Below, in pieces: positions 13,273 to 36,247 of a stretch of 64,000 nucleotides of DNA. The notes below the pieces were generated by a model that had not been told where the DNA came from, searched no databases, and saw only the letters and a program-made list of their open reading frames with translations. Location of the stretch: positions 45,768-109,767 of the forward strand of contig CABZMK010000001.1 in NCBI GenBank assembly GCA_902526865.1. Reading direction: 5' to 3'. Within the stretch, counting starts at the first letter, position 1; the number at the start of each line of letters is the position of its first letter. The translations under genes and the position numbers were made by a program. Origin of the DNA: an uncultured Alphaproteobacteria bacterium. GTDB taxonomy: Bacteria > Pseudomonadota > Alphaproteobacteria > Methylaequorales > Methylaequoraceae.

Positions 13273-14178
13273 AAAAAAAAATTTATAGTATCCAGCTTTT
13301 ATAAATTTGTCTATCTAAGAAATCCTGCTGTAATTAAAAAAAAACTATTAATTAATTTAGAAAAATTCAAAATTAAAGGAACCTTCATCCTTGGAACAGA
13401 AGGTATCAATGCTTCTTTTTCTGTGTCAACAGAACAATTTGATAAAGTTAAAGATTCAATACGAAATTTAATTTCAACTGAAATTAAATTTAAAAATCAA
13501 TTTAATAATAATCATTCTTTTTTAAGACTGAAAATCAAAGAAAAACAAGAAATTATATCTCTAGGACAAAAAAATGTTTCTCCAGAAGAAACAACTGGTT
13601 TTTTTGTTGCCCCTGATTCGTGGGACAAGTTTATTTGTGATCCAGATTCTATAATTATTGATACAAGAAATGAATATGAATCTGATATAGGTTCTTTTAA
13701 AAAGTCTGTAAAAACTAAAACTAATAATTTTAGAGAATTTCCAATTTGGTTTGAAAAACATAAGAAAAAACTTTTTGAAAAAAAAATCGGAATGTTTTGT
13801 ACTGGCGGGATCAGATGTGAAAAAGCAAGTAATTTTTTAATCAATAAGGGATATAAAAACATCTTTCAACTTGATGGTGGAATTATTGAATATTTAAATA
13901 AAACTAAAAATAAGAGTAAGATGTGGAAAGGTGAATGTTTCGTTTTTGATGAAAGAGTTTCATTAAATGATAAACTTGAAAAAGGATTGTATTCACAATG
14001 TTTTGCTTGTAGAGCTGCTTTAACTTACGTTGACACTAAATCAAGGTATTTTAAATTAGGAGTATCGTGCCCAAAATGTTTTAAAGAAAAATCGAAAAAG
14101 CAAAAAGCTAGGTATAAGGAACGACGAAGACAAATGCAAATTGCAAAAAAAAAAGGAATGAAACATATAGGTAGTTAG
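13267..14178 (+). CDS. trhO: Rhodanese-domain protein TrhO/YceA family (tRNA U34 hydroxylase-like)
   Basis: 303 aa; UPF0176 N-domain, rhodanese domain with active-site Cys ([12 protein letters not shown]), C-terminal Cys pairs and Lys-rich tail. Confidence 0.7.
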
Positions 14179-15239
14179 TCATTTCCGAGTTTTGGAATTG
14201 AGTATTTTTTCATTTTTTCAATTAAAGTTGTTCTATTTATTTTCAAGCATTTTGAGGCCTCAGTTACAGATCCGTTGCTTTTTTTTAGTGCTCCTTCTAT
14301 TAAATTAAATTCAACATCGCTTAAGTGTCTTCTAAGATCTATTTTATCTAAAAAGTCGAACCATTTTTTATAATGATTTGGGTGTGGCATTGAATCAGAA
14401 TGAGAACTTGCTTCAATTTGAATTGGAGAAAGGTCGGAGGTCATTGTCCATAACTCCTCTTTCTCCTGTGAGATGTCAGGTAGATTAATTTTTAAAAGAT
14501 TTTCTTTAATATTTTTGCCATTGATTTTTTTATCTGGAAAAATTATTACTGCTCTCTCAATAACATTTTTTAACTCTCTTACATTACCTGGCCATACATA
14601 TTCCTGAAGTGCTTTTATGCCTGTATTATCAATTTGAGGAATAATAGATCCATTGTATTTTAAATCGTCTAAAATATGATTTACAAGAATTGGGATATCA
14701 TCCTTTCTCTCTGCAAGCGAAGGAATTTCAATTGGAAAAACGTTTATCCTAAAAAATAAATCTGCCCTAAAATGACCCTCATCAATTTTTTTTTCAATGT
14801 CTTGGTGTGTAGCACAAATCAGTCTTAAATTAAGATCAATTTCTTTTCTGCCTCCAACACGTTGAATTTTTCTAGTTTCAATTGCCCTTAGTAATTTAGC
14901 CTGAAGTGCCATAGGCATGTCACCTATTTCATCCAAAAATAAGGTGCCATTGTTAGAGGCCTCAAATCTTCCTTCTCTTTTTGAGTCTGCACCAGTAAAT
15001 GCACCTTTTTCATGACCAAATAGCTCAGATTCTAAAAGCTCGGACGGGATTGCTGCACAATTAACGTTTATTAATTCACCATTTCTTTTTGATGATTCAT
15101 GAATAGCCCTAGCAACTACATCTTTACCACACCCTGTCTCACCTCTGAGTAAAACTGTTGAGTTTGATTTTGCAACCATCTCTACAAGTTTTTTTAATTG
15201 TAAAGTTACCTCACATTTTCCTTTGATGATTTCTGACAT
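14175..15239 (-). CDS. Sigma54-dependent transcriptional activator (AAA+ domain plus Fis-type HTH, no receiver domain); FleQ-like flagellar master regulator candidate
   Basis: 354 aa; Walker [15 protein letters not shown] motif ([10 protein letters not shown]), C-terminal HTH ([16 protein letters not shown]); divergent from the fleT-fliE operon. Confidence 0.8.
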
Positions 15240-15269: not shown

Positions 15270-15285
15270 TGTCAGAAAACTGACA
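15270..15285. promoter_or_regulatory. 16-bp palindrome TGTCAGAAAACTGACA, candidate enhancer-binding-protein upstream activator site, about 110 bp upstream of a sigma54 promoter
   Basis: Perfect inverted repeat TGTCAG-N4-CTGACA in the divergent regulator intergenic region; near-identical copy at 25803-25818. Confidence 0.5.
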
Positions 15286-15381
15286 ATAATCAAATTTTAA
15301 AAAAAATAAAAAAAAAAAAAAGTTTCTAAGTAATTGATATCGCAAATTAAAATTAATTTAGTAAAAATTTATTTTCTTATT

Positions 15382-15397
15382 TGGCAATATTTTTGCT
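15382..15397 (+). promoter_or_regulatory. Sigma54 (-24/-12) promoter TGGCAA-N5-TTGCT
   Basis: GG-N10-GC spacing with TGGCA and TTGC flanks, immediately upstream of the second activator gene. Confidence 0.6.
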
Positions 15398-15430
15398 TTT
15401 AGATTGAAAACGAAAATAAAGGATTTAAAT

Positions 15431-16588
15431 ATGAAGGAAATATTTATTATTAAAGATTGTTTTGAAGTACACAATGATATACGCGATTTTTTTAGTAAAA
15501 AAGGAAAGGAAATAAAATTAATTGATTCTGATGAAATCAGCGAAATTAAAAGCTCTCAATCCATACTGATTATTGATAAAAAATTCGAAAACAAACAAGG
15601 TGGTAAATCAAATATTCTTAAAGTTGCTAGAAATATAGGTTCTACAAAGTTAATAGTTTTGGATTCAGGAAATGATTGTAGTTATGATTTAAAAAAAGAA
15701 ATGGGCGGAGCTTACATTCAAATTTCTTTCAAAATTATTGATGAGGTTATAAAAGAAATTATTTTTCAAATTATATCTAAGGAAAAGTACAGTTTCTCTG
15801 ATAAGAAAACACTTTCTTTAATAAACATGGTTGAAAAAGTTTCGAAAACTGATGTTACAGTATTCATTCATGGGCCAACCGGAACTGGAAAAGAAGTTAT
15901 TTCAAATCTTATTCATAAAAAGTCGGATAGACATGAAAAGCCTTTTATTGCGATTAATTGTGCTGCAATTCCAGAAAATATGCTTGAAGCAATGTTATTT
16001 GGACATGAAAAAGGCGCTTTTACAGGAGCTTCTTCTGCCAATAAAGGAATTTTTCGAGCTGCGGATAATGGCACACTACTTCTTGATGAAGTATCTGAAA
16101 TGCCGCTGTCCCTCCAAGCAAAACTTCTCAGGGTTCTCCAAGAAAAAAAAGTTACTCCCATTGGCGGACAAAGAGATATTGATGTAAATGTAAGAGTAAT
16201 TGCAACAACGAATAGAGATATGTTAGACGAAGTAAGAGAAAAAAAATTTAGAGAGGATTTATATTATAGACTTAATGTATTCCCAATAGAAACACATAAT
16301 TTATCTGAAAGACCTGATGATATTTTACCAATAAGTATTGCTCTGTTGAATAGACACACAGAAAACAGCCCCTTACCTTACATCAATAAAGATGCTCAAA
16401 AATTATTAAGAGAGTATAGTTGGCCTGGAAATGTTAGAGAGTTAGAAAATGTTCTACAAAGAGCCATAGTTCTTTGTGAAAAAAATATTATTGAGGGTAA
16501 AGACATAATGATAGATGTGTCAAAACAAAGTAATTTTTATAATAACATTCAAGAAAATTTATCAGAAAAAAAATTGATGCAAGCTTAA
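15431..16588 (+). CDS. Sigma54-dependent activator lacking an obvious C-terminal DNA-binding domain, with REC-like N-domain (FleT-like)
   Basis: AAA+ sigma54-interaction domain ([18 protein letters not shown]); no HTH after the AAA+ domain. ATG at 15431 has SD AAGGA; the ORF-track TTG at 15404 would precede the predicted transcription start. Confidence 0.75.
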   Translation: MKEIFIIKDCFEVHNDIRDFFSKKGKEIKLIDSDEISEIKSSQSILIIDKKFENKQGGKSNILKVARNIGSTKLIVLDSGNDCSYDLKKEMGGAYIQISFKIIDEVIKEIIFQIISKEKYSFSDKKTLSLINMVEKVSKTDVTVFIHGPTGTGKEVISNLIHKKSDRHEKPFIAINCAAIPENMLEAMLFGHEKGAFTGASSANKGIFRAADNGTLLLDEVSEMPLSLQAKLLRVLQEKKVTPIGGQRDIDVNVRVIATTNRDMLDEVREKKFREDLYYRLNVFPIETHNLSERPDDILPISIALLNRHTENSPLPYINKDAQKLLREYSWPGNVRELENVLQRAIVLCEKNIIEGKDIMIDVSKQSNFYNNIQENLSEKKLMQA

Positions 16589-16604
16589 TTTTGAAGGAGA
16601 AATC

Positions 16605-16943
16605 ATGAAACCAAATCTTACTAATTTAAAACCAACAGTGACTACACCGAACAATCTAAATGAAATAAAAAAAGTTCAAGAAGAGGTTGCAAATCTGTCT
16701 CCAAAAATAATGGAACCACAAGATGGTGGTTTTTTGGATAATATTAAGTCAGCGATTCAAGAGGTTTCTGATACTCAGAAACAAAGCGCTGAATTAACGA
16801 AAAACTTTGAGCTTGGTATAGAGAACGATCTAACCAAAGTTATGATTCAACAACAATTGTCCAGTTTAGGTTTTCAAATGACTTTAAACGTAAGAAATAA
16901 AGTCTTGAGCGCATATAAAGACATTATGAATATGCCTGTTTAA
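16605..16943 (+). CDS. fliE: Flagellar hook-basal body protein FliE
   Basis: 112 aa; C-terminus ...VRNKVLSAYKDIMNMPV matches the FliE signature; position before fliF. Confidence 0.75.
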   Translation: MKPNLTNLKPTVTTPNNLNEIKKVQEEVANLSPKIMEPQDGGFLDNIKSAIQEVSDTQKQSAELTKNFELGIENDLTKVMIQQQLSSLGFQMTLNVRNKVLSAYKDIMNMPV

Positions 16944-16960
16944 ATTAAAAGGAAAAAATT

Positions 16961-18685
16961 ATGGCTGAAGAAATTCAAACTACTGAAGTAACAAAAAATT
17001 CAATATCAAATCAAGGAATGCTATCAAATATAAGCAACTCTTTAGAAAAAATTAAAAAATTTTCTAATGAACCTGCTGTCCAAAGATCTATCCCAGTTAT
17101 GATAACCTTATTTGTTATTTTTCTTGGTTTAGTTTTTTTTATATCTTTCAAGGAACCACCTAGAACAAGTTTATTTGCATCATTACCTGAACATGAGAAA
17201 TCTAGAGTAATTGATGTTTTAAGGTCTAATGGTATTGATGTTTCAATTGACAGAACTACAGGTGAAATTTTAGTTCCATCACCAGAATATTATGAAGCAA
17301 AAATGAAGCTTGCCGCAGAGGGTTTGCCGAGTTCAGTTCCTCAGGGCTATGATATTCTTGAAAAAATCCCAATGGGAACAAGCAGATCAGTTGAATTTAT
17401 GAAAATGAAACAGACACAAGAAATAGAGCTTGCCAGATCGATAAATGAAATATCTAACATTATTGGTGCAAGGGTACATCTAGCAATTCCTGAAAAATCT
17501 GTTTTTGTCAGAGACTCCTCTCCGCCCACTGCATCTGTATTTGTAAAACTAGCTGATGGAAGAGCTTTAGGATTAGAGCAAATTAGATCAATTGTTCATA
17601 TAGTATCATCATCAATTCCTAATATGACTTCCGACAACGTAACAGTTGTAGATCAATATGGTTCGTTATTATCAAAACCAGAGGATGACCCCAATTTAGC
17701 GATGACAGAGAAACAATTATCTCATAGAGTAAAAATTGAATCTATATACAGAGAAAGAATTTTATCATTAGTTTCTCCAATCGTTGGTGCAGGTAATTTA
17801 ACAGCACAAGTAAATGTTGAAATGGATTTTACAAGCAATCAAACAACAGAAGAAATTTTTGATCCAGAGAGCATTTCAACTAGAAGTGAACAAAATAGTC
17901 AAGACGAATCCACTGATAGACCAGCAAGAGGTATTCCTGGTGCTGTAGCTAACCAAGCACCTCTAGCTGCTGATTTACAGGTTGCAGCTCCTGAAATTGG
18001 GGAGTCAGCAGAATTCAAGCAAAGATCATCCAGTAATGTTAAAAACTATGAAGTTAGTAAAAAACTTAGTACAACCGTTGGTCAAATTGGAAAAATTAAG
18101 AAAGTTAAGACGGCTGTTTTAGTTAAAAACAAAATGATTGAAACTCCAGAGGGCACAGTTGTCTCTGAGCCTATAAGTGAAGAAGATAGAGAAAAAATTA
18201 CTTCTCTTGTTAAAGAAGCGGTTGGTTTCAATGAGGATAGAGAAGACACAATTGTTGTAACCAGTGGAGATTTTATCCAAGAAATGGATGTTATTACAAC
18301 AAAATGGTATGAACAATCATGGTTTCAAAATATGATTGGTCAGTTATCGACTGTTCTAATTCTTGCAATCGTAACATTCGGTGCATTAAAGCCATTGTTA
18401 AATAGAATTTTAGTTCCTTCAGCTGGAACAGCTGCAGGTCCAGGTGGTACTTCTGAAGCTGATCTTGAGGCAGAAGAAGCAGAAGATGAAGTTCAAGTTC
18501 AAGAAGGCGAATCTCTTGAAGACATAAAAGCTAAACTTAAACCAAAAAAATCAACTATTTCAGCAGATATGCTCGATACGGCCAACACTTACGACGATAA
18601 AGTTGCGGTTATAAGGATGATAGTTGGAGATGAAGCTGGAAAAGTTTCAAATGTATTCAGACAACTTATGAAAAAAGATGTATAA
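16961..18685 (+). CDS. fliF: Flagellar M-ring protein FliF
   Basis: 574 aa; N-terminal TM, YscJ/FliF domain, C-terminal TM and acidic tail; followed by fliG. Confidence 0.85.
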   Translation: MAEEIQTTEVTKNSISNQGMLSNISNSLEKIKKFSNEPAVQRSIPVMITLFVIFLGLVFFISFKEPPRTSLFASLPEHEKSRVIDVLRSNGIDVSIDRTTGEILVPSPEYYEAKMKLAAEGLPSSVPQGYDILEKIPMGTSRSVEFMKMKQTQEIELARSINEISNIIGARVHLAIPEKSVFVRDSSPPTASVFVKLADGRALGLEQIRSIVHIVSSSIPNMTSDNVTVVDQYGSLLSKPEDDPNLAMTEKQLSHRVKIESIYRERILSLVSPIVGAGNLTAQVNVEMDFTSNQTTEEIFDPESISTRSEQNSQDESTDRPARGIPGAVANQAPLAADLQVAAPEIGESAEFKQRSSSNVKNYEVSKKLSTTVGQIGKIKKVKTAVLVKNKMIETPEGTVVSEPISEEDREKITSLVKEAVGFNEDREDTIVVTSGDFIQEMDVITTKWYEQSWFQNMIGQLSTVLILAIVTFGALKPLLNRILVPSAGTAAGPGGTSEADLEAEEAEDEVQVQEGESLEDIKAKLKPKKSTISADMLDTANTYDDKVAVIRMIVGDEAGKVSNVFRQLMKKDV

Positions 18686-18709
18686 TATAAATTAATAAGG
18701 AGTACCCAA

Positions 18710-19759
18710 ATGGCTGAAAAAGCTAAGGAAGAAAATAAAGAAGAAGAAGAAAAGTCGCAATATGAAAAATTAACAAGCACTCAAAAATGTGCTATTTTGA
18801 TGATGCTTTTAGGTGAGGAAGAGGCTTCAGAAATTTTAAAAAATTTGGGGCCAAAAGAAGTGCAGCAACTCGGTAAAGAGATGTACAATGTTCAAGGTTT
18901 AGATCAGGAAACTGTCAATAGAGTTTTAGACGAATTTTTAGCCATCATTAAAACACAAACTGATCTGGGAATGGGTTCTACAAACTACATTAGAAATGTA
19001 ATGACAAAAGCCTTAGGTGAAAATAAAGCTCAGTCTGTTCTTGGAAGAATTACTCCTACTGAAAGTGACAAACCAATAGAAATTTTAGATTGGATGGATG
19101 CCAGATCAGTCGCAGAATTAATTTCTGATGAACATCCACAAATAATGGCTTTGATAATTTCGTATTTAGAGCCTGGTGTTGCAGCAGATGTTTTAACTTT
19201 GCTACCTGAAGAAACTCAATCTGATATTATTCATCGTATTGCAACCCTAGAAACAGTTCAACCAGACGCTTTGGCAGAGTTGGAAAGAGTTATGCAACTT
19301 AAATTTAAAACAAACACTTCATTGCGAGCCTCCTCAGTCGGGGGAATAAAAGATGCTGCATCAATAATGAATTTTACAAAGCAGAATATGGAACAAAGAA
19401 TCATGAAAACGTTAGGTGAAAAGGATAGAAATTTAGCTAAAGAAATTCAGGAAAGTATGTTTACCTTTGATACATTAATTTTAATGGATGATAGAAGCAT
19501 GCAAACTTTATTAAGAAATGTTGATCAAGAAATTCTTATAATTGCCCTTAAAGGAACAGAAGACGAATTAAAAGACAAGATTTTCTCGTGCATGTCTCAA
19601 AGAGCTTCGGCAAACATCAGAGATGAAATGGAAGTACTTGGCCCACTGAGACTTACAGAGGTTCAAGAGGCTCAGAAGGCTATAATCAATGTAGCAAGAA
19701 CTATGTCAGACGAAGGAACAATTGTGCTTGCTGGAAGAGGTGGAGATGACTTCGTATGA
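18710..19759 (+). CDS. fliG: Flagellar motor switch protein FliG
   Basis: 349 aa; FliG N/M/C domains (AILMMLLGEEEASEILKNL; torque helix region). Confidence 0.85.
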   Translation: MAEKAKEENKEEEEKSQYEKLTSTQKCAILMMLLGEEEASEILKNLGPKEVQQLGKEMYNVQGLDQETVNRVLDEFLAIIKTQTDLGMGSTNYIRNVMTKALGENKAQSVLGRITPTESDKPIEILDWMDARSVAELISDEHPQIMALIISYLEPGVAADVLTLLPEETQSDIIHRIATLETVQPDALAELERVMQLKFKTNTSLRASSVGGIKDAASIMNFTKQNMEQRIMKTLGEKDRNLAKEIQESMFTFDTLILMDDRSMQTLLRNVDQEILIIALKGTEDELKDKIFSCMSQRASANIRDEMEVLGPLRLTEVQEAQKAIINVARTMSDEGTIVLAGRGGDDFV

Positions 19760-20622
19760 TGCCACTCACAGATAAAACCGTAGCTCAGCAAAAAAGTGAT
19801 GAAAAAATTTCTGGAGCACTAAGCACTGAAGAAATTGTTAGTTTATTAAATAAAAGTAATAAAGACTTCGTAAAAGAGTCAGATATTACTTCTAACATTA
19901 CCAATTTGTTTAAAAAAGTTACTCCGTTATCCCTCGCACAAAAAAATAAAGAAATAACATCAGAAAAAAAAGAAGAAGTAACAAAAGATTTGAATGAGGT
20001 TTCTGAAAGTAAGGATAAGGAACCAACAAGTGACATTATTGATGAAAAAAAACCAGAAAATGAAAAAGTATATACAGAAATAGAAGCACAAAAATTAGCC
20101 AATGATTTAGCAAAACAATATTACAATAATGGTTATAAACTTGGAGTAAAAAAAACTACTGAAGAGCTTCAAAAAGGAGAAAAATCTCTTGCTGTAACAC
20201 TTAAAAATACAACTGATAATATTTTTAAAATGACGCCAGAATTTGTAGATGAATTAAACAAATCAATAACAAATTTACTTTCAAATTTATCAAAAGAAGT
20301 TTTAGGTTACGAGATAGATAATAACAATAAATTATTTCAAGAAAAAATTAAGCAAGTTGTCAATTCAGTTGAAAACTCAATTGAAAAAATTGTAGTTTTT
20401 TTAAATCCTAAAGATTTTGAAGCTATAAAAGTTTACAACAGTAAAAATAATTTAAGTTTATCATTTGAAATAAATCAAGATGCAAAACTTGAACGAGGTG
20501 ATATGAGAATAAAATCGGGATCAATAGAGATGAGTGACATTGTTTCTAAAAAAATCAAATATTCAATACCTAATGAAATTGAGAAAGATCTTGAAGATGT
20601 CAAATTAAATGCTCAAAAATAA
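19756..20622 (+). CDS. fliH: Flagellar export protein FliH (by position and composition)
   Basis: 288 aa charged coiled-coil protein between fliG and fliI; 4-bp overlap with fliG. Confidence 0.55.
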   Translation: MMPLTDKTVAQQKSDEKISGALSTEEIVSLLNKSNKDFVKESDITSNITNLFKKVTPLSLAQKNKEITSEKKEEVTKDLNEVSESKDKEPTSDIIDEKKPENEKVYTEIEAQKLANDLAKQYYNNGYKLGVKKTTEELQKGEKSLAVTLKNTTDNIFKMTPEFVDELNKSITNLLSNLSKEVLGYEIDNNNKLFQEKIKQVVNSVENSIEKIVVFLNPKDFEAIKVYNSKNNLSLSFEINQDAKLERGDMRIKSGSIEMSDIVSKKIKYSIPNEIEKDLEDVKLNAQK

Positions 20623-20646
20623 ACTTTTATTTAGAATTAAACATAA

Positions 20647-21966
20647 ATGGTTATAGCAAAAAAAATACTCCAGACTATAGATTCACATACTATAACTCAA
20701 AATAGGATCTATAAGAGTAAAACATCAAAATTTGATGGTAAAGTTGTCGAATGTGAAGCATTTCCCTCACCAATCGGCACAACATGTGAAATAGAATGTA
20801 ATGACAAAACTATAGTCACGGGAGAAATTATTGGTTTCAAAGAAAATAAAAATATTATTGCCGTTCATGAACATAATGCAAACATAATTTTAGGATCTGA
20901 AATAAGAGTCTTAAATTCATCAAATGATGTAATTGTGGGTTCTCATTTACTTGGAAGGGTTTTAGATGCTTTTGGGAATCCAATAGATGGTGGCGCAAAA
21001 ATAAATGACTCTGCAGAAACATGGCCGATTAATGGAAAACCCAATAATCCAATGTCAAAAAAACCGATAAATGAAGTGCTAGATGTTGGTATTAGAGCGA
21101 TCAATTCACTTTTTACTGTAGGAAGAGGCCAAAGGCTTGGAATTATTGCAGGTTCTGGAGTTGGAAAATCTATTTTACTTGGAATGATGACTAAGTTTAC
21201 TAACGCAGATGTTGTTGTTGTAGCACTAATCGGAGAAAGAGGAAGAGAATTAGGTAATTTTGTATCAGAGATATTGAATGACGAATCAAGAAAAAGGACT
21301 GTCACCTTAGCTGTACCAGCAGACAAATCTCCATTGTTAAGAATTAAAGGAGCAGAAAGAGCAACTTCAATCGCAGAATATTTTAGGTCTAAAGGAAAAA
21401 ACGTTTTGCTTATCATGGACTCTCTTACCAGAATAGCTCACGCTAAACGAGAGGTGGGGTTGGCACTGGGTGAACAACCTACTTCAAAAGGATACCCAAC
21501 ATCTGTAATTTCAATGATTCCAAATCTAATTGAAAGAACAGGAGCCGGTTCAAAAAATGAAGGAACTATAACAAGTTTCTATACAATACTGGCAGATTCT
21601 GATGACACGAACGACCCTGTGGTAGACACTGCTAGGGCAATATTAGACGGACATATTGTATTATCTAGAGAACTTGCACAACTTGGAATCTTTCCTGCAA
21701 TTGATTTAAATCAATCATTAAGTAGAGTAATGAATTCTATTGTTAACGAAGAACATCAAAATCAGTCTGAATTAGTAAAAAAATTATACTCCATATACCA
21801 AGAAAACAAAGATCTCATTCTTATGGGTGGATATGCCCAAGGGCAAAACCCTGAAATTGATAGTGCATTAAATAATTGGAATAAAATTTGCAACCATATA
21901 AAACAGCATTTTAAAAAAAAATCAAGTTTTGAAGACAGCATATCAAGCTTGAAGAAGATTAACTGA
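20647..21966 (+). CDS. fliI: Flagellum-specific ATP synthase FliI
   Basis: 439 aa; Walker A GSGVGKS, F1/T3SS ATPase-like core. Confidence 0.9.
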   Translation: MVIAKKILQTIDSHTITQNRIYKSKTSKFDGKVVECEAFPSPIGTTCEIECNDKTIVTGEIIGFKENKNIIAVHEHNANIILGSEIRVLNSSNDVIVGSHLLGRVLDAFGNPIDGGAKINDSAETWPINGKPNNPMSKKPINEVLDVGIRAINSLFTVGRGQRLGIIAGSGVGKSILLGMMTKFTNADVVVVALIGERGRELGNFVSEILNDESRKRTVTLAVPADKSPLLRIKGAERATSIAEYFRSKGKNVLLIMDSLTRIAHAKREVGLALGEQPTSKGYPTSVISMIPNLIERTGAGSKNEGTITSFYTILADSDDTNDPVVDTARAILDGHIVLSRELAQLGIFPAIDLNQSLSRVMNSIVNEEHQNQSELVKKLYSIYQENKDLILMGGYAQGQNPEIDSALNNWNKICNHIKQHFKKKSSFEDSISSLKKIN

Positions 21967-21970
21967 TGAC

Positions 21971-22384
21971 ATGAAAAAAAGAAAATATGATATTTTTTTA
22001 ATCCTTAAAAAATTAAAGAAAAATAAGCTGCTTAACAATTTATCTACACTACATAATGAAAAAAAAAGGCTAGATTTTGTAAAAGAAACGCTGAATGAAA
22101 TGTTAAATCAAAGCTCTGTAAACAAACTTGGTGAACTTTCAGGTTCAGATTTAAAGTTTAGAGCTTCTTTTACAAGCAATTTAATTAATAAACTGGAGGT
22201 TTCAAAAAATAGGGAAAATCATGTATTAGACGAAATTAGTTATAATTTAAAAGAAATAGTAAAAATTGAAAAACAAAAAGAAAAAATAAGTGAAAAAAAG
22301 AAATTTATCAAAATACAAGAGGATAAAGTAAAAGAATTAAAAAAAGAAAATTATTTCAACCCTAAAAATTCAGTTTCTCTTTGA
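21971..22384 (+). CDS. fliJ: Flagellar export chaperone FliJ (by position; coiled coil)
   Basis: 137 aa K/E-rich coiled-coil ORF directly after fliI. Confidence 0.5.
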   Translation: MKKRKYDIFLILKKLKKNKLLNNLSTLHNEKKRLDFVKETLNEMLNQSSVNKLGELSGSDLKFRASFTSNLINKLEVSKNRENHVLDEISYNLKEIVKIEKQKEKISEKKKFIKIQEDKVKELKKENYFNPKNSVSL

Positions 22385-22387
22385 TAG

Positions 22388-22403
22388 TGGCATTATAATT
22401 GCA
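22388..22403 (+). promoter_or_regulatory. Sigma54 promoter TGGCAT-N5-TTGCA
   Basis: GG-N10-GC, excellent match, 25 bp upstream of the fliK-like ATG. Confidence 0.6.
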
Positions 22404-22427
22404 CAATTGCTTTAACAAGGGGCAGTT

Positions 22428-23738
22428 ATGGTTGCAATAAAAAATGATACTAGCAAAAACATAAATTTCGTAAACTCAACTTTACATTCTGAAAAAACAA
22501 ATGAGCTATTTGCTGAACTCTTTGCACTAATAAATACAAATAGTTTAGATCCTGAAAATAAAAATTTACTGAAAGATGTAGTCTTACAAAAACCTGAAAC
22601 TAAAGAATTTTTGGATGTAAATAAAAATATCCCTGAAAATAGTTTGTTGAAAGTTACTTCCGAGCAGAAAAATAAATTTGAGGTTACAGATTCTGAATAC
22701 GAGACTGCAAAATCACTTATAGAGGTATTTTATAAAGAAATTGGTATTGTCGAACCTTTGAATCAAACAAAAAATGCTAATCCAAACAGTTTAAATCAAA
22801 ATCCAAAATCATTATTAAATAAAAATTTTACAACAGGAAAAAAAAAAATAGCTGTAGAGAATAAATTGGATTCTAATGAGTTTGATTTAGCTCTAAAAAA
22901 TGATAATTCAAAAAAAATTGTTATAAACATAATTAAAGATCCTTCACATTACAAAAAAATTAATAAAGATGATCACCGTCCAAAATTTTTTACAGAAAAT
23001 AAAAGTCAGATTGATAATAAAGTACTAAAGCAGCAAAATGAGTTTAATTACAAAGCAAATAACACAAACTTTGAAACTGCGAGTATTAACAAAAAAATAA
23101 ACAAAAAAAATAAACAATTTAAAGTTTCAGCAAAGGATAAAATTGAACACAACCACCTAATTACAAAACAAGTTAAAATTGAGAATAGAAAAAATACTAA
23201 TTTTACTCAAATTATGAAAAAATCAGGAGAAATTCAAATAGGTCAGAAAAGAGAAATCAGCAATAAAGATTTTTTAAAAACCGTGGAAACTAAAGATAAT
23301 CAGATGCAAAATAAAGGGCAAATCTTTTTGGATTTATTGGAGAGTAGCTGGGGCGAAAAATTCTCTCGAATTGTAAAAAATGCGGTCAATAACGGTGTAA
23401 ACAAATTAGAAATTCAAGTTAAACCAAAGAATTTAGGCAAATTAAATCTCGAGGTTTCTGTGAAAAATAGTGTCACAGCCATTAATATTGGATCAGAGAA
23501 TCAAGATGTTGTAAGTCTTCTTAATGACAACCTTCCAAAACTTTTAGAATCAATTGATAAAGAAAGCAAAAGTTTCTCAAGTAATATGAATAATGAAGAT
23601 AACAATAGTAATTATTTTAACCAAAGAAATGAAAAAGAAAATTTTTTGTCGAACAATGAAATTTCCAAAAAGAATAAAAAAGAAGTTGAAAATAAAAATC
23701 AAAAATTTAGTAATCATAATATTGATGTGAATGCCTAA
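22428..23738 (+). CDS. fliK: Flagellar hook-length control protein FliK-like
   Basis: 436 aa low-complexity N/K-rich protein with C-terminal Flg_hook-like domain (LEIQVKPKNLGKLNLEVSV...AINIGSENQDVVSLL). Confidence 0.65.
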   Translation: MVAIKNDTSKNINFVNSTLHSEKTNELFAELFALINTNSLDPENKNLLKDVVLQKPETKEFLDVNKNIPENSLLKVTSEQKNKFEVTDSEYETAKSLIEVFYKEIGIVEPLNQTKNANPNSLNQNPKSLLNKNFTTGKKKIAVENKLDSNEFDLALKNDNSKKIVINIIKDPSHYKKINKDDHRPKFFTENKSQIDNKVLKQQNEFNYKANNTNFETASINKKINKKNKQFKVSAKDKIEHNHLITKQVKIENRKNTNFTQIMKKSGEIQIGQKREISNKDFLKTVETKDNQMQNKGQIFLDLLESSWGEKFSRIVKNAVNNGVNKLEIQVKPKNLGKLNLEVSVKNSVTAINIGSENQDVVSLLNDNLPKLLESIDKESKSFSSNMNNEDNNSNYFNQRNEKENFLSNNEISKKNKKEVENKNQKFSNHNIDVNA

Positions 23739-23765
23739 TTAATTTAAAGTATTAAGGAGAGAATA

Positions 23766-24398
23766 ATGGCAGAAGAGAATAATCAAGAAACTGAAAAGAA
23801 GTCACCCTTAAAATTAATTTTGATGATTGTAGGTGGCATAGTCCTTCTAGGAACAGGTATTGGAGTTGGAATTTTCATGGGTGGGGGAGAGGATACAGAT
23901 CCATCAGCTGAGATATCTCAGATTATTGAAAAAAAAGAAAACCCTGAACCATCAAAAAATGAAGACGATGAAAATATTGATGAGGCTGCTGCTGAATGTG
24001 CGGAAGAAGAAAAAGACGAAGAAGGCAACTGTCCTTCAGGTCCAAAGAAGATTCCAAAGATCACACCTGAAGAAGAAATATTTACAACAACGTATTATGA
24101 ATTTCCTGGTAATTTCACAGCCAATTTAAAGGGTTCAAAAAAGTTTCTTCAACTCTCAGTCGGAGTTTCAACTCAATATGACGAACAAGTAATGGTAAAT
24201 GTAGAGAGTCATCAACTTGCTCTTAGATCTGAAATATTGACCATCATGTCGGAATTTTCTTCTGAAGATATTGCTGGTAAAGAGGGTAAAAATAACTTGG
24301 CTGAATCATTGAGAGATGGAATTAATGAGGTTCTTGTAAAAGTTGAAGGCTTTGGTGGAATCGAAAATGTTCATTTTACCTCATTTGTAGTACAATAG
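23766..24398 (+). CDS. fliL: Flagellar basal body-associated protein FliL
   Basis: 210 aa; single N-terminal TM then FliL periplasmic domain (YYEFPGNFTANLKGSKKFLQLSVGVS). Confidence 0.7.
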   Translation: MAEENNQETEKKSPLKLILMIVGGIVLLGTGIGVGIFMGGGEDTDPSAEISQIIEKKENPEPSKNEDDENIDEAAAECAEEEKDEEGNCPSGPKKIPKITPEEEIFTTTYYEFPGNFTANLKGSKKFLQLSVGVSTQYDEQVMVNVESHQLALRSEILTIMSEFSSEDIAGKEGKNNLAESLRDGINEVLVKVEGFGGIENVHFTSFVVQ

Positions 24399-24410
24399 GA
24401 AATTAAAATT

Positions 24411-25388
24411 ATGTCTGAACCATCAAGGAAATTATCAACCGAAGAAGTCAACGCCTTAATGGACGGTCTTAAATCAGGAGATTTAAGTGCATCAACTTCA
24501 GTTAAAGATGGAACTGCGATTGAGTACAAAAAATTTAATTTTGGCTCAGACGATCTTTCACTTTTAGGAGACTATTACGCTTTAAGACTGATAAATGAGA
24601 GGTTCGCAAGAACGGTTAGAGGAGTATTTCTCCCATTGCTAAGAGTTCAACCTAGAATAAGTTCGTTTCCCCCAGAAGTAAAATCTTTCGAAGAATACAG
24701 TTCGGGTTTAGATGCATTTATGAGTTTAACAAATAGTAGAATAGACGAGTTAAGAGGTTCCATGCTGACTGTTCTGCCACCATCTTTTGTTAGCCTTTGT
24801 ACTAGTAGTAGATATGGAGGAAAATTAGAGGTTAATGACGCTTCGAGAAGTGAATTTACTGCAACCGAAGAAAAAATAATCGAAGTTATAAATAATGGAA
24901 TCTCAGAGGTTCTTGAACAATGTTGGAAAGATCTAACGCCTATTTCAATCAAATTTCAAAGTAGAGAGCAAAATCCACAGTTTGCTGCTTTTGTAGAATC
25001 TACAGATTTAGTTATAGTATGTTCATTTGTAATGCAGTTACCTAACATTGACTCAATGTCTTTCGATGTAGTTTACCCACTTCAAACACTTAAACCAGTT
25101 TCATCTTTACTGAGATCCAGAGTTCAATCTGATGTAGTTGAGTCTAACATGACGTGGAGAGATAAGCTAGAAAAAGCAATATTAGAAATTCCTTTATTAG
25201 TCAAAAGTAATCTAAGTGAACCGGTTGTCTCAATGTCTAAATTGCTGAGAATGAAGGCAGGAGACACGTTAAACGTAAATTTAGAAGATAAGGTCGATTT
25301 TTATGTTGAAAATCAAAAATACTTTAAAGCTGAAATGGGAGAACTTAACGGCAATGCTTCAGTAAAGCTTGCTACACGAAATAATTAA
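24411..25388 (+). CDS. fliM: Flagellar motor switch protein FliM
   Basis: 325 aa; N-terminal CheY-binding-like LSTEEVNALM; FliM middle domain; C-terminal SpoA-like. Confidence 0.8.
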   Translation: MSEPSRKLSTEEVNALMDGLKSGDLSASTSVKDGTAIEYKKFNFGSDDLSLLGDYYALRLINERFARTVRGVFLPLLRVQPRISSFPPEVKSFEEYSSGLDAFMSLTNSRIDELRGSMLTVLPPSFVSLCTSSRYGGKLEVNDASRSEFTATEEKIIEVINNGISEVLEQCWKDLTPISIKFQSREQNPQFAAFVESTDLVIVCSFVMQLPNIDSMSFDVVYPLQTLKPVSSLLRSRVQSDVVESNMTWRDKLEKAILEIPLLVKSNLSEPVVSMSKLLRMKAGDTLNVNLEDKVDFYVENQKYFKAEMGELNGNASVKLATRNN

Positions 25389-25399
25389 GGAGAAAAATT

Positions 25400-25801
25400 A
25401 TGAATGCAGAAACCGCAGAAAAAGATAAAAATCAAACCGAGCAAGCTCAGGAAGAAACTAAGGCACCTGAAGCCTCAGCTGAAAATCAGGTCAATAAACC
25501 TGAGACAGAATCCACAAAGACCGCAGACAAAAATACTGCAGCAGTAAGTAATTTGAGACTTCTGGAAAACATAGAAGTAAAACTTACTGTTGAAGTTGGA
25601 AATACTGAAATTAAAATCAAAGACTTGTTAAGATTAAATGAAGGATCAGTTGTTGAACTAGATAGATTGGCTGGAGACGCTTTAGATATTTTAGCAAATG
25701 GGACAAAAATTGCTAAAGGCGAAGTTGTTATGGTTGGTGAAAAATTTGGTATAAGATTTACTGAAGTTGCTACCCCAGAGGAACTAATTGAAAACTTATA
25801 A
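25400..25801 (+). CDS. fliN: Flagellar motor switch protein FliN
   Basis: 133 aa; C-terminal SpoA domain (LLRLNEGSVVELDRLAGDALDILANGTKIAKGEVV). Confidence 0.85.
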   Translation: MNAETAEKDKNQTEQAQEETKAPEASAENQVNKPETESTKTADKNTAAVSNLRLLENIEVKLTVEVGNTEIKIKDLLRLNEGSVVELDRLAGDALDILANGTKIAKGEVVMVGEKFGIRFTEVATPEELIENL

Positions 25802-25802
25802 T

Positions 25803-25818
25803 TGTCAGGAAATTGACA
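25803..25818. promoter_or_regulatory. 16-bp palindrome TGTCAGGAAATTGACA, candidate activator (FleQ-box-like) site about 65 bp upstream of a sigma54 promoter
   Basis: Second copy of the TGTCAGnAAAnTGACA motif; followed by a T-run and could double as a weak terminator stem after fliN. Confidence 0.5.
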
Positions 25819-25880
25819 TCTTCTTTTTTAATCAATAATTTATAAATAAAATCAACAACTTACAATAAGTGTCGTTGTTA

Positions 25881-25896
25881 CGGCAAGGTTTTTGCA
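25881..25896 (+). promoter_or_regulatory. Sigma54 promoter CGGCAA-N5-TTGCA upstream of fliO
   Basis: GG-N10-GC spacing; lies in the fliN-fliO gap. Confidence 0.55.
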
Positions 25897-28112: not shown

Positions 28113-29264
28113 ATGGCAGAAGACAAAGACGAAAGTCAAGAAAAAACCGAGGAACCAACCGCCCGAAGACTTGAAAAAGCAAAAGAGGATGGGAAAGTTC
28201 TGTCTTCAAAAGAAGCTTTTGTTTTTAGTTCAATGTTCATGGGAGTATTACTATTTTATCTAGCTCCAATGCTTTTAGACGATTTTTTAAAAATTTGTAA
28301 ATCTCTATTTTCGTTTGGGCCAGAGTTAGCCTCTGGAAAGTCTCCTCTGGAATCTGTTACTGTAGTTGTAAAATTTTTCATTCAAGTATTTTTAATTTTT
28401 TCAATACCACTATTAGTAGTAAGTGTTCTAACGCAATTTTTAATCGGTGGAATAAACTTCTCCTTAAAGTCAGTTTACTGGAAGTTTGAAAAAATGAATC
28501 CAATTAAAGGATTAAAAAGAATATTTTCACTTAAAGGATTAGTAGAGTTAGTTAAAGCTATATTGAAAGTCAGTCTTCTTGGTCTGGTAGCTTTTTATCT
28601 GATTGAAAATAATTTATCTGATTTAGTCAACTTAACAACTGCTAATATTTTTTCCGCAGTAAATAGACTTTTTTCTTTTTTTCCAGAAATAATTGCCTAT
28701 CTCCTTGTCGTTCTCGCATTCATAGCTTTTATAGATGTGGTTTACCAAAAGTATGATTATATTAAGCAACTAAGAATGTCTCATCAAGACCTCAAAGACG
28801 AATACAAAGAAACTGATGGACAACCAGAAGTCAAACAAAAAATAAGAAAACTTCAAGCCGAAGCTGCAACAAAAAGTAGAAAAGAAGCATCGTCTGTTGA
28901 TAACCTTGAAGAAGCTACTGCAATAATTACAAACCCAACACACTTTGCCGTAGCTCTGAAATATGAGGTTGGGGACGCAAAAGCTCCTACAATTATATCA
29001 AAAGGAAGAGGTAAAATTGCTGAATCTATAATTAAGAAAGGAAAAGAACTTAAGATTGGTACAATGCAAAGTCCTAAACTGGCAAGAGCAATATACTATA
29101 CATCTGAAATTGGTGATGAAATTATGAGTAAGCTTTACAATGCTGTTGCTATTGCCTTAGCATATATTTATAAAATAGATAATGGAGAAGAAATTGAGAA
29201 ACCAGAGATAGAGGTACCTGAAGATATGATTTTTGATGAGTTTGGGAGAAAAAATGATCAATAG
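28113..29264 (+). CDS. flhB: Flagellar export apparatus switch protein FlhB
   Basis: 383 aa; four TMs then cytoplasmic domain with NPTH autocleavage motif (ITNPTHFAVAL). Confidence 0.9.
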   Translation: MAEDKDESQEKTEEPTARRLEKAKEDGKVLSSKEAFVFSSMFMGVLLFYLAPMLLDDFLKICKSLFSFGPELASGKSPLESVTVVVKFFIQVFLIFSIPLLVVSVLTQFLIGGINFSLKSVYWKFEKMNPIKGLKRIFSLKGLVELVKAILKVSLLGLVAFYLIENNLSDLVNLTTANIFSAVNRLFSFFPEIIAYLLVVLAFIAFIDVVYQKYDYIKQLRMSHQDLKDEYKETDGQPEVKQKIRKLQAEAATKSRKEASSVDNLEEATAIITNPTHFAVALKYEVGDAKAPTIISKGRGKIAESIIKKGKELKIGTMQSPKLARAIYYTSEIGDEIMSKLYNAVAIALAYIYKIDNGEEIEKPEIEVPEDMIFDEFGRKNDQ

Positions 29265-29475
29265 AAATATTTCACAACTAATTGTTACTGTTGCATTTCT
29301 TTACAGCTCACTAATATGCCACTTTAAGGCTATCGAAGTGTTCGAAGAGAAAAATTTTTTGCTTGCTTTATTTCTTTGGTTTTGTGCTTTAACTTCTTTT
29401 TGTGGTGCGTTAAGATTCCAAATTGCAAAACTATATTATAAAATAAGAGATCTAACAAAAAATGAACCAAAATAA
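29233..29475 (+). CDS. Small membrane protein (80 aa), translationally coupled to flhB
   Basis: Two hydrophobic helices; overlaps the flhB 3' end; no homology recognised. Confidence 0.35.
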   Translation: MMSLGEKMINRNISQLIVTVAFLYSSLICHFKAIEVFEEKNFLLALFLWFCALTSFCGALRFQIAKLYYKIRDLTKNEPK

Positions 29476-29662
29476 CTGTAATAACTGCACGCACTTTTAT
29501 GTGACCCACAAGAAAAACTTTCCTTATGGTTGTAAAGCATTTGGTGTAATTTCAAAAAATAATCCATATTTAGAAATAAAGAAAGTTTCTGGCACAGATT
29601 GTGCACTATTTCAAAAAAAACAAAAAAGTGTTAAAACATTTAATAAAGGAAGAATTGCATGA
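29462..29662 (+). CDS. Cys4 mini-protein (66 aa), possible zinc ribbon
   Basis: CNNC...C...C spacing (Cys 6, 9, 24, 47); overlaps neighbouring ORFs by stop/start. Confidence 0.35.
   Translation: MNQNNCNNCTHFYVTHKKNFPYGCKAFGVISKNNPYLEIKKVSGTDCALFQKKQKSVKTFNKGRIA
29590..29605 (+). promoter_or_regulatory. Sigma54 promoter-like element TGGCAC-N5-GTGCA inside the Cys4 ORF
   Basis: Perfect -24 TGGCAC and GG-N10-GC spacing, about 55 bp upstream of the coiled-coil gene start. Confidence 0.4.
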
Positions 29663-30384
29663 CACAACAACTTAATGCAATGCAAGAAAGCATAAAAATA
29701 GCTTTGGATGCGGCCGACGCAGCCACTGATGTGACCTCAGAATATAAAAGAATTAAAAACGAATATTTAAAGACGGAGCAAAAAATGAAAGAAATTCACA
29801 AATATACAACAATCATTTTTTCAAGTTCAATTGCCACAGCTGTAATAGCAATTATTTTAACAGGATTATTATATTTTAAATCACTTTCAGAACTTGAAGA
29901 TATGACAAGTACTAGTCGAGAAGCTCTAGTTGTATTTGCTGAAAATGTTGAAAATGTTAACAAAGCTGTAGATAATATGAATCAAAGTTTGGCTAGACAT
30001 ACTGATCTATTAAATGCTAGTGACGAGATGAAAGTTAAACTTGAAGAACTTTCAAACGCAATTAATTCAAATGATAAAAAACTTATGCTAAATTTATCAA
30101 AGGAAATATCAAACCTATCATCCGGGCTTTCTAAATCAATTAAAAACGAGGCAGACAAACTCAATAAGTCAATTCAAGAGTCAGGTGTAGTCACCTCCGC
30201 TAGTGTTAACAAAGAAATTGGTAAACTGTTGAAAGATAATAAGAAGAATCAAAATGTTAAACTTTTAAAAGAACTTTCTAATAGCACCTCTTCATTAAAT
30301 GCAGCACTCGAAGCGATTTCTAGCCAAAATAAACAGTTAGTTAAGGAAATAACAGATCAAAAAGAAAGCATAACTTTCCCATAA
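29659..30384 (+). CDS. Membrane-anchored coiled-coil protein (241 aa)
   Basis: One TM (IIFSSSIATAVIAIILTGLLYF) followed by long heptad-rich domain; unknown function. Confidence 0.45.
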   Translation: MTQQLNAMQESIKIALDAADAATDVTSEYKRIKNEYLKTEQKMKEIHKYTTIIFSSSIATAVIAIILTGLLYFKSLSELEDMTSTSREALVVFAENVENVNKAVDNMNQSLARHTDLLNASDEMKVKLEELSNAINSNDKKLMLNLSKEISNLSSGLSKSIKNEADKLNKSIQESGVVTSASVNKEIGKLLKDNKKNQNVKLLKELSNSTSSLNAALEAISSQNKQLVKEITDQKESITFP

Positions 30385-30391
30385 TAATATT

Positions 30392-31192
30392 ATGTCTGAA
30401 ACAAAAGAAGGAAATTTTTTCTTAAAAATTAATAAAATAAATGGTGGAAGTCATGCAGCAAATAATTTCTTAAAGCCAGACGATATAATTGTTGCACTTG
30501 ATAATCAGATTTATACTTTCGGTGAAAAACAACTAACTTCTGATTTAAAAGAATTAAAAAAAAGTAATCAAAAGTCTATGCTCACAGTTTTAAGAGAGGA
30601 TATATTTTTTAATTTGTTAATAGAAAATAGTTTAGGTTGCAAATTTACCACAACTACAGCTGAGGAAACCAATAAAATTAAATCTGATTATTTATCACAA
30701 GAAGTAAATGATCTTGACGAATTAAAAGAATTTATTGGAATGAGAGACGTTTACAGAAACTACGAAGTCATTGAAAATGCTAATTCTTTATCAGCAGGCA
30801 TTTTTCCCCCACTTTGGTTAGCTTATTCACAAAAATGGTGGCTTTTGTTTCTATTTACAGCAATTATGGCAGTATCCTTATCAGTTAATATTTATGTTTT
30901 TTTCTTGGGGTGGTTACTAACTTCAATTTACTGTTATAAAGCCCAATTAAACCTTCTCTTCAGCTTTTCCATGCTAGAGGGAAAAGTTTTTTGTGTAAAA
31001 TTGTTGTCTAAATCAATTGATGAGGCTCAAAAAACCATAAGAAAGCTTGACCCAAAATCCAAATTTAAATTTTCAAAACTACCAAAACCACTTGTAGAAG
31101 AGGTTGAAAAAGATAAAAAAGACGACAACGTTAACAAAAAAGACAGTAATAAAGAAAACATTGTTGATGAAAATCAGACAGTAATAGTATAA
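30392..31192 (+). CDS. Membrane protein with N-terminal PDZ-like segment and DUF2628-like TM region
   Basis: INKINGGSHAANNFLKPDDIIVALDNQ resembles the PDZ ligand-binding region; FPPLWLAYSQKWWLLFLF resembles the DUF2628 motif; Lys-rich tail. Confidence 0.4.
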   Translation: MSETKEGNFFLKINKINGGSHAANNFLKPDDIIVALDNQIYTFGEKQLTSDLKELKKSNQKSMLTVLREDIFFNLLIENSLGCKFTTTTAEETNKIKSDYLSQEVNDLDELKEFIGMRDVYRNYEVIENANSLSAGIFPPLWLAYSQKWWLLFLFTAIMAVSLSVNIYVFFLGWLLTSIYCYKAQLNLLFSFSMLEGKVFCVKLLSKSIDEAQKTIRKLDPKSKFKFSKLPKPLVEEVEKDKKDDNVNKKDSNKENIVDENQTVIV

Positions 31193-31201
31193 ACTATACA
31201 T

Positions 31202-34733: not shown

Positions 34734-34749
34734 TGGTATAGATTCTGCA
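34734..34749 (+). promoter_or_regulatory. Sigma54 promoter-like element (plus strand: TGGTAT-N5-CTGCA) sharing its -12 TGCA with the motA promoter
   Basis: GG-N10-GC on the plus strand; about 60 bp upstream of the DUF1566 gene. Confidence 0.4.
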
Positions 34750-34762
34750 ACTTTAATACCAA
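34746..34762 (-). promoter_or_regulatory. Sigma54 promoter (minus strand: TGGTAT-N5-TTGCA) upstream of motA
   Basis: GG-N10-GC on the minus strand; about 50 bp upstream of the motA ATG. Confidence 0.5.
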
Positions 34763-35284: not shown

Positions 35285-35499
35285 TCTTTCTGATTAAAAT
35301 GCTCAATTAATTTAAATAAAAATAGACAAATACCAGCTACAAAAATTAATATTGCCGCATTCCAAGGTGTTACAAACGAAAGATAGCCTAAATTGTCCTT
35401 AAAAGTCAGTGAAATAATAATCAACAGCAGAACAAATGCTAAAAAAAATCTTATGTAGGAACATATTCTACAGTTTTTCATCTTTTTAAAATCAAACAA
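35281..35499 (-). CDS. Small hydrophobic protein (72 aa), uncertain
   Basis: Two predicted TM helices; overlaps neighbours; may be spurious. Confidence 0.25.
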   Translation of the reverse strand: MFDFKKMKNCRICSYIRFFLAFVLLLIIISLTFKDNLGYLSFVTPWNAAILIFVAGICLFLFKLIEHFNQKD

Positions 35500-36068: not shown

Positions 36069-36247
36069 TAAGAATATAATAGATTATATCCTCAAATAAG
36101 CCAGTATATATGAAGATAAATAAGAGTTTTGTTAATTTCTTTTTTTATTATTATGAGTGTCAAGTATCTGACTTAATAAAAGTGTCAAATTAAAGTTTTG
36201 CATTTCTTAGCAAAAAATTGTGAAATAATATTGAAAGGAAAAGAATT

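Follow-up and report, generated by a model that had tools for sequence, protein, structure and literature searches.

Conserved palindromes matching the FleQ box in a flagellar gene cluster of uncultured marine Alphaproteobacteria

The DNA analysed here is a 64-kb stretch (hereafter referred to as the window; ~29% GC) from an uncultured alphaproteobacterium (GenBank assembly GCA_902526865.1, contig CABZMK010000001.1, positions 45,768 to 109,767), in which the region between 14 and 42 kb is occupied by a supercluster of flagellar and sigma-54-related genes and the remainder by housekeeping genes. Three intergenic copies of a short palindrome (boxes 1, 2 and 3) are found within this one cluster, two of them upstream of sigma-54 promoters of flagellar operons and the third upstream of rpoN. 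The boxes are real and deeply conserved DNA sites, with the flagellar master activator, a FleQ-like enhancer-binding protein (EBP), as their most likely ligand, as judged from the sequence and comparative evidence that constitutes the whole of the present analysis.

Palindromes and promoters of the flagellar cluster

The cluster opens with a fleQ-like gene on the minus strand and a divergent fleT-like gene, which is followed by fliE, F, G, H, I, J, K, L, M and N. The gene fliO, with no family match, was named solely by its place before fliP, and fliP, fliQ, fliR and flhB were called by position and size. Further members include motAB on the minus strand, rpoN, a gene with an SLT domain, an M23 peptidase gene and three bactofilin genes. 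The features of immediate concern are given below.

15270-15285, no strand assigned: putative FleQ box 1, TGTCAGAAAACTGACA, predicted upstream activator site (UAS) of the fleT-fliE operon promoter
25803-25818, no strand assigned: putative FleQ box 2, TGTCAGGAAATTGACA, predicted UAS of the fliOPQR-flhB promoter
36158-36173, no strand assigned: putative FleQ box 3, TGTCAAGTATCTGACT, upstream of rpoN, absent from the original prediction
15382-15397, plus strand: sigma-54 (-24/-12) promoter of the fleT-like/fliEFGHIJ operon, TGGCAATATTTTTGCT, TGGCAA-TATTT-TTGCT
25881-25896, plus strand: sigma-54 (-24/-12) promoter of fliO-fliPQR-flhB, CGGCAAGGTTTTTGCA, CGGCAA-GGTTT-TTGCA, conserved in orthologs
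15327-15339, minus strand: motif resembling a site for integration host factor (IHF), between box 1 and its promoter, TAAGTAATTGATA (YAANNNNTTGATW)
25850-25862, plus strand: IHF-like motif between box 2 and its promoter, AATCAACAACTTA (WATCAANNNNTTR)
14175-15239, minus strand: fleQ-like EBP, 354 amino acids, AAA+ sigma-54 activator domain and Fis-type helix-turn-helix (HTH) by Pfam, predicted box-binding protein
15431-16588, plus strand: fleT-like EBP, 385 amino acids, 120 N-terminal amino acids and AAA+ domain, no HTH by Pfam, first gene of the box-1 operon
36248-37708, plus strand: rpoN (sigma-54), Pfam Sigma54_AID/CBD/DBD, downstream of box 3

Boxes 1 and 2 had been described in the original prediction as two 16-bp palindromes in flagellar intergenic DNA, lying about 110 and 65 bp upstream of sigma-54 promoters. 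Their coordinates are correct, the gene map agrees with the intergenic location, which all three boxes share, and the distances measure 112 bp from the start of box 1 and 63 bp from the end of box 2. A chance origin is excluded, as the pattern TGTCAG-N5-TGACA has three strand-matches in the window, while the expectation from shuffles that preserve its dinucleotides is 0.01 and none of the shuffles reached the observed count. The 64 kb contain exactly three copies of the 14-bp core GTCA-N6-TGAC, namely boxes 1, 2 and 3, and a weight matrix trained on the orthologous sites (threshold 13 bits) scores at least 13 bits at these three positions only (scores 18-21), with no further match elsewhere in the flagellar cluster.

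Box 1 lies between the two divergent EBP genes, 31 bp from the start codon of the fleQ-like gene, and a distance of 105 bp separates its centre from the -24 GG of the fleT promoter. Box 2 starts 2 nucleotides past the fliN stop codon, and the fliO promoter has its GG 71 bp from the centre of this box. Both occupy conserved positions within the ~70-150 bp upstream of a -24 GG/-12 GC promoter that are typical of a UAS. Box 3, centred 82 bp upstream of the rpoN ATG, does not occupy a UAS position, as no -24/-12 element follows it. The proposal that the palindromes are UASs of sigma-54 promoters is therefore supported for boxes 1 and 2, where the layout of box, IHF-like motif and promoter is conserved, and not for box 3, which indicates that the motif is not exclusively a sigma-54 UAS.

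The three boxes are 14-bp pseudopalindromes of the form GTCA-N6-TGAC with centres that are A/T-rich in the orthologs, as expected of FleQ boxes. The inner 14 bp had been likened to the FleQ-box consensus of Pseudomonas; that consensus, GTCaNTAAAtTGAC, is indeed the one published for P. aeruginosa (Baraquet & Harwood 2016, as quoted in PMC6120874), and box 2 agrees with it at 13 of 14 positions.

Conservation of boxes and promoters in related genomes

Related loci were collected by a FliG-based scan of species-representative genomes, which yielded 80 loci, and by an RpoN-based metagenome scan, which yielded 43 loci, 26 of them with DNA upstream of rpoN. The 123 loci (1.57 Mb in total, in segments of up to ~21 kb) come from single-amplified genomes (SAGs) and metagenome-assembled genomes (MAGs) of marine Alphaproteobacteria, SAR116 and PS1, and box enrichment was assessed on the window together with these orthologous segments. 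Individual boxes were graded by the number of matches among their 10 arm bases. The loci identical or nearly identical to the window belong to SAGs and MAGs labelled uncultured marine Alphaproteobacteria, 'Rickettsiales' or 'Pelagibacteraceae' (for example AG-349-G20, MED652 and TMED13), and SAR116/Puniceispirillum, the PS1 clade (IMCC14465) and 'Rhodobiaceae' MAGs have FliG proteins 70-75% identical to that of the window. Wherever the contigs reach, the 80 loci keep the order of fleQ and divergent fleT-fliEFGHIJ...MN, then fliP and flhB.

The 123 loci contain 101 exact cores, against 17 expected from composition. As many as 87 of them fall at the three orthologous positions (32 at box 1, 29 at box 2 and 26 at box 3), and the 14 found elsewhere are at about the background level. 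Among 225 sigma-54-like matches in the 80 loci, 30 carry a box of at least 9/10 at -220 to -40, and all of these are fleT or fliO promoters.

Box 1 has the form TGTCAG-N5-TGACA in each of the 25 loci of the close clade (within L001-L028) whose fleQ-fleT spacer is complete, variation being confined to N5 (AAAAC, AAAAA, AATCC, AATCA, AAACC and AAATA). Its centre-to-GG distance in this clade is 101-105 bp, with two loci at 91-92 bp, and its distance from the fleQ ATG varies between 22 and 56 bp. Many distant relatives of higher GC (SAR116, PS1; L030-L080) have two boxes ~38-43 bp apart upstream of the fleT promoter, of the form TGTCAnAAAAtTGAAC and often with a degenerate right arm, where the low-GC clade has one perfect box. 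Of 57 related loci, 55 have a box 2 with at least 8 of the 10 arm bases right behind fliN. The sigma-54 promoter that follows lies 59-148 bp further downstream, two outliers (168 and 259 bp) aside, and the centre-to-GG distance within the close clade is mostly 70-73 bp (range 64-86). Box 3, in the form [T/A]GTCA-N6-TGAC[T/C/A], is found in 26/26 metagenome loci, centred -80 to -83 from the ATG of rpoN genes whose products are 67-97% identical.

Phylogenetic footprints of the two promoter spacers reveal exactly three conserved blocks each, namely the box with short flanks, the IHF-like motif and the -24/-12 element. The motifs at 15327-15339 and 25850-25862 resemble the IHF consensus and are treated here as putative IHF sites. 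In the fleQ-fleT spacer alignment TAA-N5-TG of the IHF-like motif is invariant, as are TTGG and TTGCTT of the promoter (13 aligned orthologous spacers), and an A-tract (~15300-15321) separates box 1 from the motif. After box 2, a TCA...TTA block of the IHF-like motif is conserved in 17 aligned spacers, and the window genome has a second IHF-like match at 25830-25842. The succession of box, putative bend and sigma-54 promoter is the textbook enhancer arrangement, in which the binding of IHF is a prediction.

Palindromes may also function at the level of RNA, and box 2 could accordingly be a terminator after fliN (a 6-bp stem with a GAAA loop and a U-rich tail) and box 1 a hairpin in the fleQ leader. 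The sequence TCTTCTTTTTT after box 2 would suit such an explanation, and so would the appearance of box 1 (minus strand) in the terminator scan and the z-score of its hairpin (-3.3). However, the stems of box 2 (-5.1 kcal/mol, z = -0.5) and box 3 (-4.5 kcal/mol, z = -0.7) are weak, the plus-strand free energies of the three boxes range from -4.5 to -6.7 kcal/mol, terminator-like matches in the region are at the level of shuffles (9 versus 7.2), and the same sequence recurs at three unrelated loci. Moreover, among 44 distinct variants of box 2, G2, C4, G13 and C15 are invariant, while 12 of the variants have lost pair 3-14 and 11 have lost pair 1-16; the outer T/A positions vary, and the only two-sided arm changes are two A-T variants at the outermost pair. 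Conservation of the sequence and not of the pairing fits a dimeric DNA-binding protein rather than an RNA element. In view of the weak folds, the mostly one-sided arm changes and the lack of any family match in an Rfam scan of the cluster, the hairpin explanation was rejected as extremely improbable.

Another explanation, which is possible although we are inclined to doubt it, is that the boxes are mainly operators at sigma-70-type promoters, with FleQ repressing its own gene from box 1 and controlling rpoN from box 3. It partly overlaps with the enhancer function proposed here, to which it could add a further role, and it has precedents in Pseudomonas, where FleQ works as an operator-type regulator at pel, psl and cdrA and, in P. 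aeruginosa, both represses and activates sigma-70 promoters. The short distance of 31 bp between box 1 and the fleQ ATG is in its favour, as are the conserved flanks of this box, which on the minus strand may by our own reading be taken for a -35 element TTGATT (15293-15288) and a -10 element CATTAT (15270-15265) with the box filling the spacer. Similarly, box 3 is fixed at -82 from the rpoN ATG and is followed by a strongly conserved TTGCAT-N17-TGAAAT-like element and no -24/-12 motif. These putative sigma-70 hexamers are weak, however, and the conserved distance of box 1 is that to the sigma-54 promoter and not that to the fleQ ATG, while box 2 stands right after a stop codon in a co-directional gene array, with no divergent gene and with a conserved sigma-54 promoter 71 bp downstream.

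The region directly 3' of box 3 (36182-36232) consists of a block, GTGTCAAATTAAAGTTTTGCATTT ... AATTGTGAAATAA, that is found in 26/26 loci with a conservation exceeding that of box 3 itself. It holds a lone TGTCA half-site 25 bp from box 3 and can be read as the sigma-70-type promoter TTGCAT-N17-TGAAAT; on inspection, misfits of spacing excluded box 3 and this block as a sigma-54 or sigma-28 promoter. The spacer containing box 3 is shared with a divergent open reading frame (ORF) of 196 amino acids, which is poorly conserved (28-81% identity).

Regulators, predicted activation and neighbouring genes

The fleQ-like EBP carries the GAFTGA motif, and Pfam detects neither an N-terminal regulatory domain nor a GAF domain in it, in keeping with the original description of an HTH-bearing EBP of 354 amino acids devoid of a receiver domain. 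Of the proteins with solved structures, P. aeruginosa FleQ (8p53) matches it best, in an alignment that runs from the AAA+ domain to the end of the HTH (E 8e-82). With the search confined to the C-terminal 64 residues, which contain the HTH, FleQ still ranks first (E 2.4e-7), ahead of Fis and Fis-like proteins at 3e-3 or worse. The 62 orthologs compared, with overall identities of 53-97%, all have the recognition helix RTTLIEKM[KR]K, the corresponding sequence of FleQ being RTTLVEKMRKY. By structure match and recognition helix, therefore, the genome encodes a FleQ-family EBP with a matching Fis-type HTH, and this protein is the sole regulator of the cluster with a detected DNA-binding domain. 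The best 120 matches in a search for its homologues all belong to the marine clade. The neighbouring fleT-like EBP possesses GAFTGA and Walker A motifs, has the AAA+ domain of V. cholerae FlrC as its best solved-structure match and lacks an HTH, as does FleT. Its N-terminal ~120 amino acids (15431-15800) have no Pfam match and could represent a degenerate receiver-like domain.

The box and the recognition helix are conserved together over 53-97% protein identity and 29-62% GC, and this tracking of an invariant FleQ-type helix by the box across genomes of such different composition speaks for the box being a recognition element that the FleQ family has conserved. Binding by the EBP is nevertheless a prediction, and the palindromes might instead be bound by a different dimeric transcription factor, a suggestion consistent with the NifA UAS pattern TGT-N10-ACA that boxes 1 and 2 fit, with the frequent use of dyads of similar length by HTH dimers, those of the Fis type included, and with the presence of several ORFs without family assignment in the cluster. 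It appears unlikely to us, since the only DNA-binding regulator detected in the cluster is the FleQ-like EBP, whose HTH is of the FleQ type and is conserved along with a motif equal to the published FleQ box; in addition, nif genes are absent and the EBP has no GAF domain.

It is, on balance, probable that the palindromes are FleQ boxes through which a dimer of the FleQ-like EBP is predicted to act as an enhancer-binding activator at the fleT and fliO promoters, with a subsequent step involving FleT. The Fis-type HTH domains of the dimer (14175-15239) would bind the 14-bp dyads, with GTCA and TGAC on either side of an A/T-rich N6, and the EBP, placed ~105 bp (fleT) and ~71 bp (fliO) upstream of the -24 GG, would work as a classical sigma-54 enhancer protein, the DNA between box and promoter being bent at the IHF-like site or the A-tract. 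The GAFTGA loop of its AAA+ ring would contact the closed complex of the sigma-54 holoenzyme, and ATP would be used to open this complex. Activation of the fleT operon would then supply the HTH-less second EBP along with FliE-J, and FleQ/FleT hetero-oligomers may in turn drive the boxless fliK, motAB and SLT promoters, by analogy with the class II to class III switch of R. sphaeroides fla1. Box 1, located in the fleQ promoter/leader region, probably also mediates autoregulation of fleQ, because it lies only 31 bp from the start codon, and box 3 suggests control of rpoN by the FleQ-like EBP at a promoter of a non-sigma-54 type.

Several points weigh against this interpretation, among them the four sigma-54 promoters listed here.

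22388-22403, plus strand: sigma-54 promoter upstream of fliK, conserved, no box nearby
34746-34761, minus strand: sigma-54 promoter of motAB, conserved, no box nearby
38653-38668, minus strand: sigma-54 promoter of the SLT-domain (lytic transglycosylase) gene, conserved, no box nearby
40725: sigma-54 promoter of the bactofilins, TGGCAAAATTATTGCA, present in a subset of relatives only

Every aligned ortholog retains the fliK, motA and SLT promoters, which are boxless all the same, and the bactofilin promoter, retained by a subset of orthologs, is boxless as well. For these four and for the candidates at 29590 and 38010, no box of at least 9/10 exists within -260 to +120, the best (8/10) being upstream of motA. 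A box is thus not a general requirement for sigma-54 activation in this cluster, and the boxless promoters are activated either site-free, or from distant boxes, or by a hetero-oligomer that reads an undetected feature. Furthermore, no GG-N10-GC promoter is found 3' of box 3, and a Rayleigh test for helical phasing of the box-promoter distance across clades was not significant (best p ~0.04-0.1, uncorrected). The 'RR' pair of FleQ is the proposed reader of the GxC ends, and its first Arg is replaced by Asn in the low-GC clade; in Pseudomonas itself the consensus predicts chromatin immunoprecipitation (ChIP) peaks poorly and ChIP-seq recovered no motif.

A more far-reaching version of the proposal, offered tentatively and with a good deal less confidence, is that in this streamlined bacterium a sensor-less FleQ operates with ~3 boxes per cluster (at the fleT operon, fliOPQR-flhB and rpoN), box 3 allowing FleQ to exert feed-forward control over its own sigma factor from a non-sigma-54 promoter, and that the fliK, motAB and SLT promoters are 'enhancer-less' and fired by FleQ/FleT from solution or from distant boxes, FleQ-box recognition being common to the gamma- and alphaproteobacterial systems. 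If so, the cluster would be a natural minimal model of two EBPs that divide enhancer-dependent and enhancer-independent activation between them, and FleQ-box recognition would be conserved between FleQ of the gammaproteobacterial Pseudomonas and the FleQ/FleT systems of Alphaproteobacteria.

Some of the neighbouring genes also deserve mention. The SLT-domain transglycosylase, the M23 peptidase and the three tandem bactofilins lie beside rpoN (38036-41850) in an order conserved where the contigs of the relatives reach, and may form a module for the cell wall or for polarity that is connected with insertion of the flagellum; the conserved sigma-54 promoter of the SLT gene is situated directly past the M23 stop codon. 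Between a 180-amino-acid ORF and the first bactofilin gene (40605-40751) there is a highly conserved element, TTATGCATTnnnTnAGCCAAAAT ... CTTTTTTTTTAATTTTTTTTGTGATAAGCAT, present in all relatives (L087, L089, L090, L097, L098, L115-L121). The interval from flhB to the next gene (29256-29660) is coding, with a membrane-like ORF of ~80 amino acids and a small Cys-rich ORF (CxxC...C...C) that shows third-position variation across orthologs. The strong sigma-54-like match at 29590, TGGCACAGATTGTGCA, is located inside this conserved Cys-rich ORF (...SGTDCALF...) and so may not be a promoter; it was regarded as doubtful. Five conserved ORFs at 29659-32725 and 35478-36068 (241, 266, 199, 307 and 196 amino acids) have no Pfam match, and an NCBIfam scan of the first four gave nothing convincing, the 199-amino-acid ORF having a sub-threshold match to ribosome-recycling factor. 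Between motA and rpoN (34811-35284) lies a gene for a small protein whose C-terminal domain is of the Lcl type (Legionella collagen-like protein family), and its position is conserved in relatives. Outside the flagellar cluster, genes for EgtD-like (Methyltransf_33), EgtB-like (FGE-sulfatase domain) and class-V aminotransferase proteins (55231-58585) suggest ergothioneine-type biosynthesis in a small-genome marine bacterium.

Comparison with known systems

The Pseudomonas FleQ box, whose version in P. putida is GTCAaAAAAtTGAC, is recognised by a dimer of HTH domains, whose Arg residues touch the GxC ends in a model. The published data fit the boxes described here, as the G-N-C positions invariant among them coincide with the ends contacted in the FleQ model. 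Both systems share the 14-bp pseudopalindrome GTCA-N6-TGAC, the centre of which is A/T-rich, its binding (here predicted) by a Fis-type HTH dimer, a nearly identical recognition helix, and the occurrence of boxes both at flagellar sigma-54 promoters and at a promoter of a non-sigma-54 type. They differ in that the host is an uncultured marine alphaproteobacterium of 29% GC, that its regulator is without the N-terminal REC-like FleQ domain and has Asn for the first Arg of the RR pair in this clade, and that no FleN was seen in the 64-kb window. Recognition of DNA by FleQ has been hard to pin down in Pseudomonas, where the footprinted flagellar sites were described as lacking sequence conservation and the consensus comes mostly from biofilm promoters and fits flagellar ones poorly. 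The boxes of the present cluster, in contrast, are few, nearly perfect and in a clean form at the canonical upstream enhancer positions of flagellar sigma-54 promoters.

The gene layout resembles that of the fla1 system of R. sphaeroides (Cereibacter), and it is on this layout, established by Pfam domains and by a gene order kept in 80 loci, that the likeness rests. In both, an HTH-bearing FleQ is accompanied by an HTH-less second EBP heading a fleT-fliEFGHIJ operon, which is driven by a FleQ-dependent sigma-54 promoter (a dependence predicted for the present cluster); rpoN is part of the flagellar cluster, and motAB and an SLT-type transglycosylase are under sigma-54 control. Judging by the FliG identity of 70-75% with SAR116 and PS1, a cluster of this type is widespread in marine Alphaproteobacteria. 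R. sphaeroides FleT has been described as having neither flanking domain, unlike the FleT-like protein of the window with its extra N-terminal region of ~120 amino acids. UASs have reportedly been mapped at six R. sphaeroides promoters, whereas the class III-type promoters of the present cluster are without a recognisable box.

Sigma-54 enhancers of the NtrC/NifA type likewise have a dyad 70-150 bp upstream of the -24/-12 promoter, and the bend site in between has a putative counterpart here in the IHF-like motifs. The half-site found here is of the FleQ type and not the TGCACC of NtrC. Boxes 1 and 2 formally fit TGT-N10-ACA of NifA, and an identity as NifA UASs was rejected on account of the EBP without a GAF domain, the flagellar rather than nif/fix context and the variable outer T/A positions in orthologs. 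LafK, the master EBP of lateral flagella, is another sigma-54 activator of flagellar genes that has no N-terminal domain for signal recognition; it is encoded upstream of fliE, the position held here by the fleT-like gene.

The boxes are thus a known type of regulatory site encountered in a new group of organisms, which extends known biology without a new mechanism. For the abundant, uncultured and motile marine Alphaproteobacteria they provide regulatory predictions comprising three targets, autoregulation, control of rpoN and boxless class III promoters. They further offer comparative evidence for a FleQ-box recognition conserved well beyond Pseudomonas, linking the FleQ paradigm of Pseudomonas with the FleQ/FleT paradigm of Rhodobacter.

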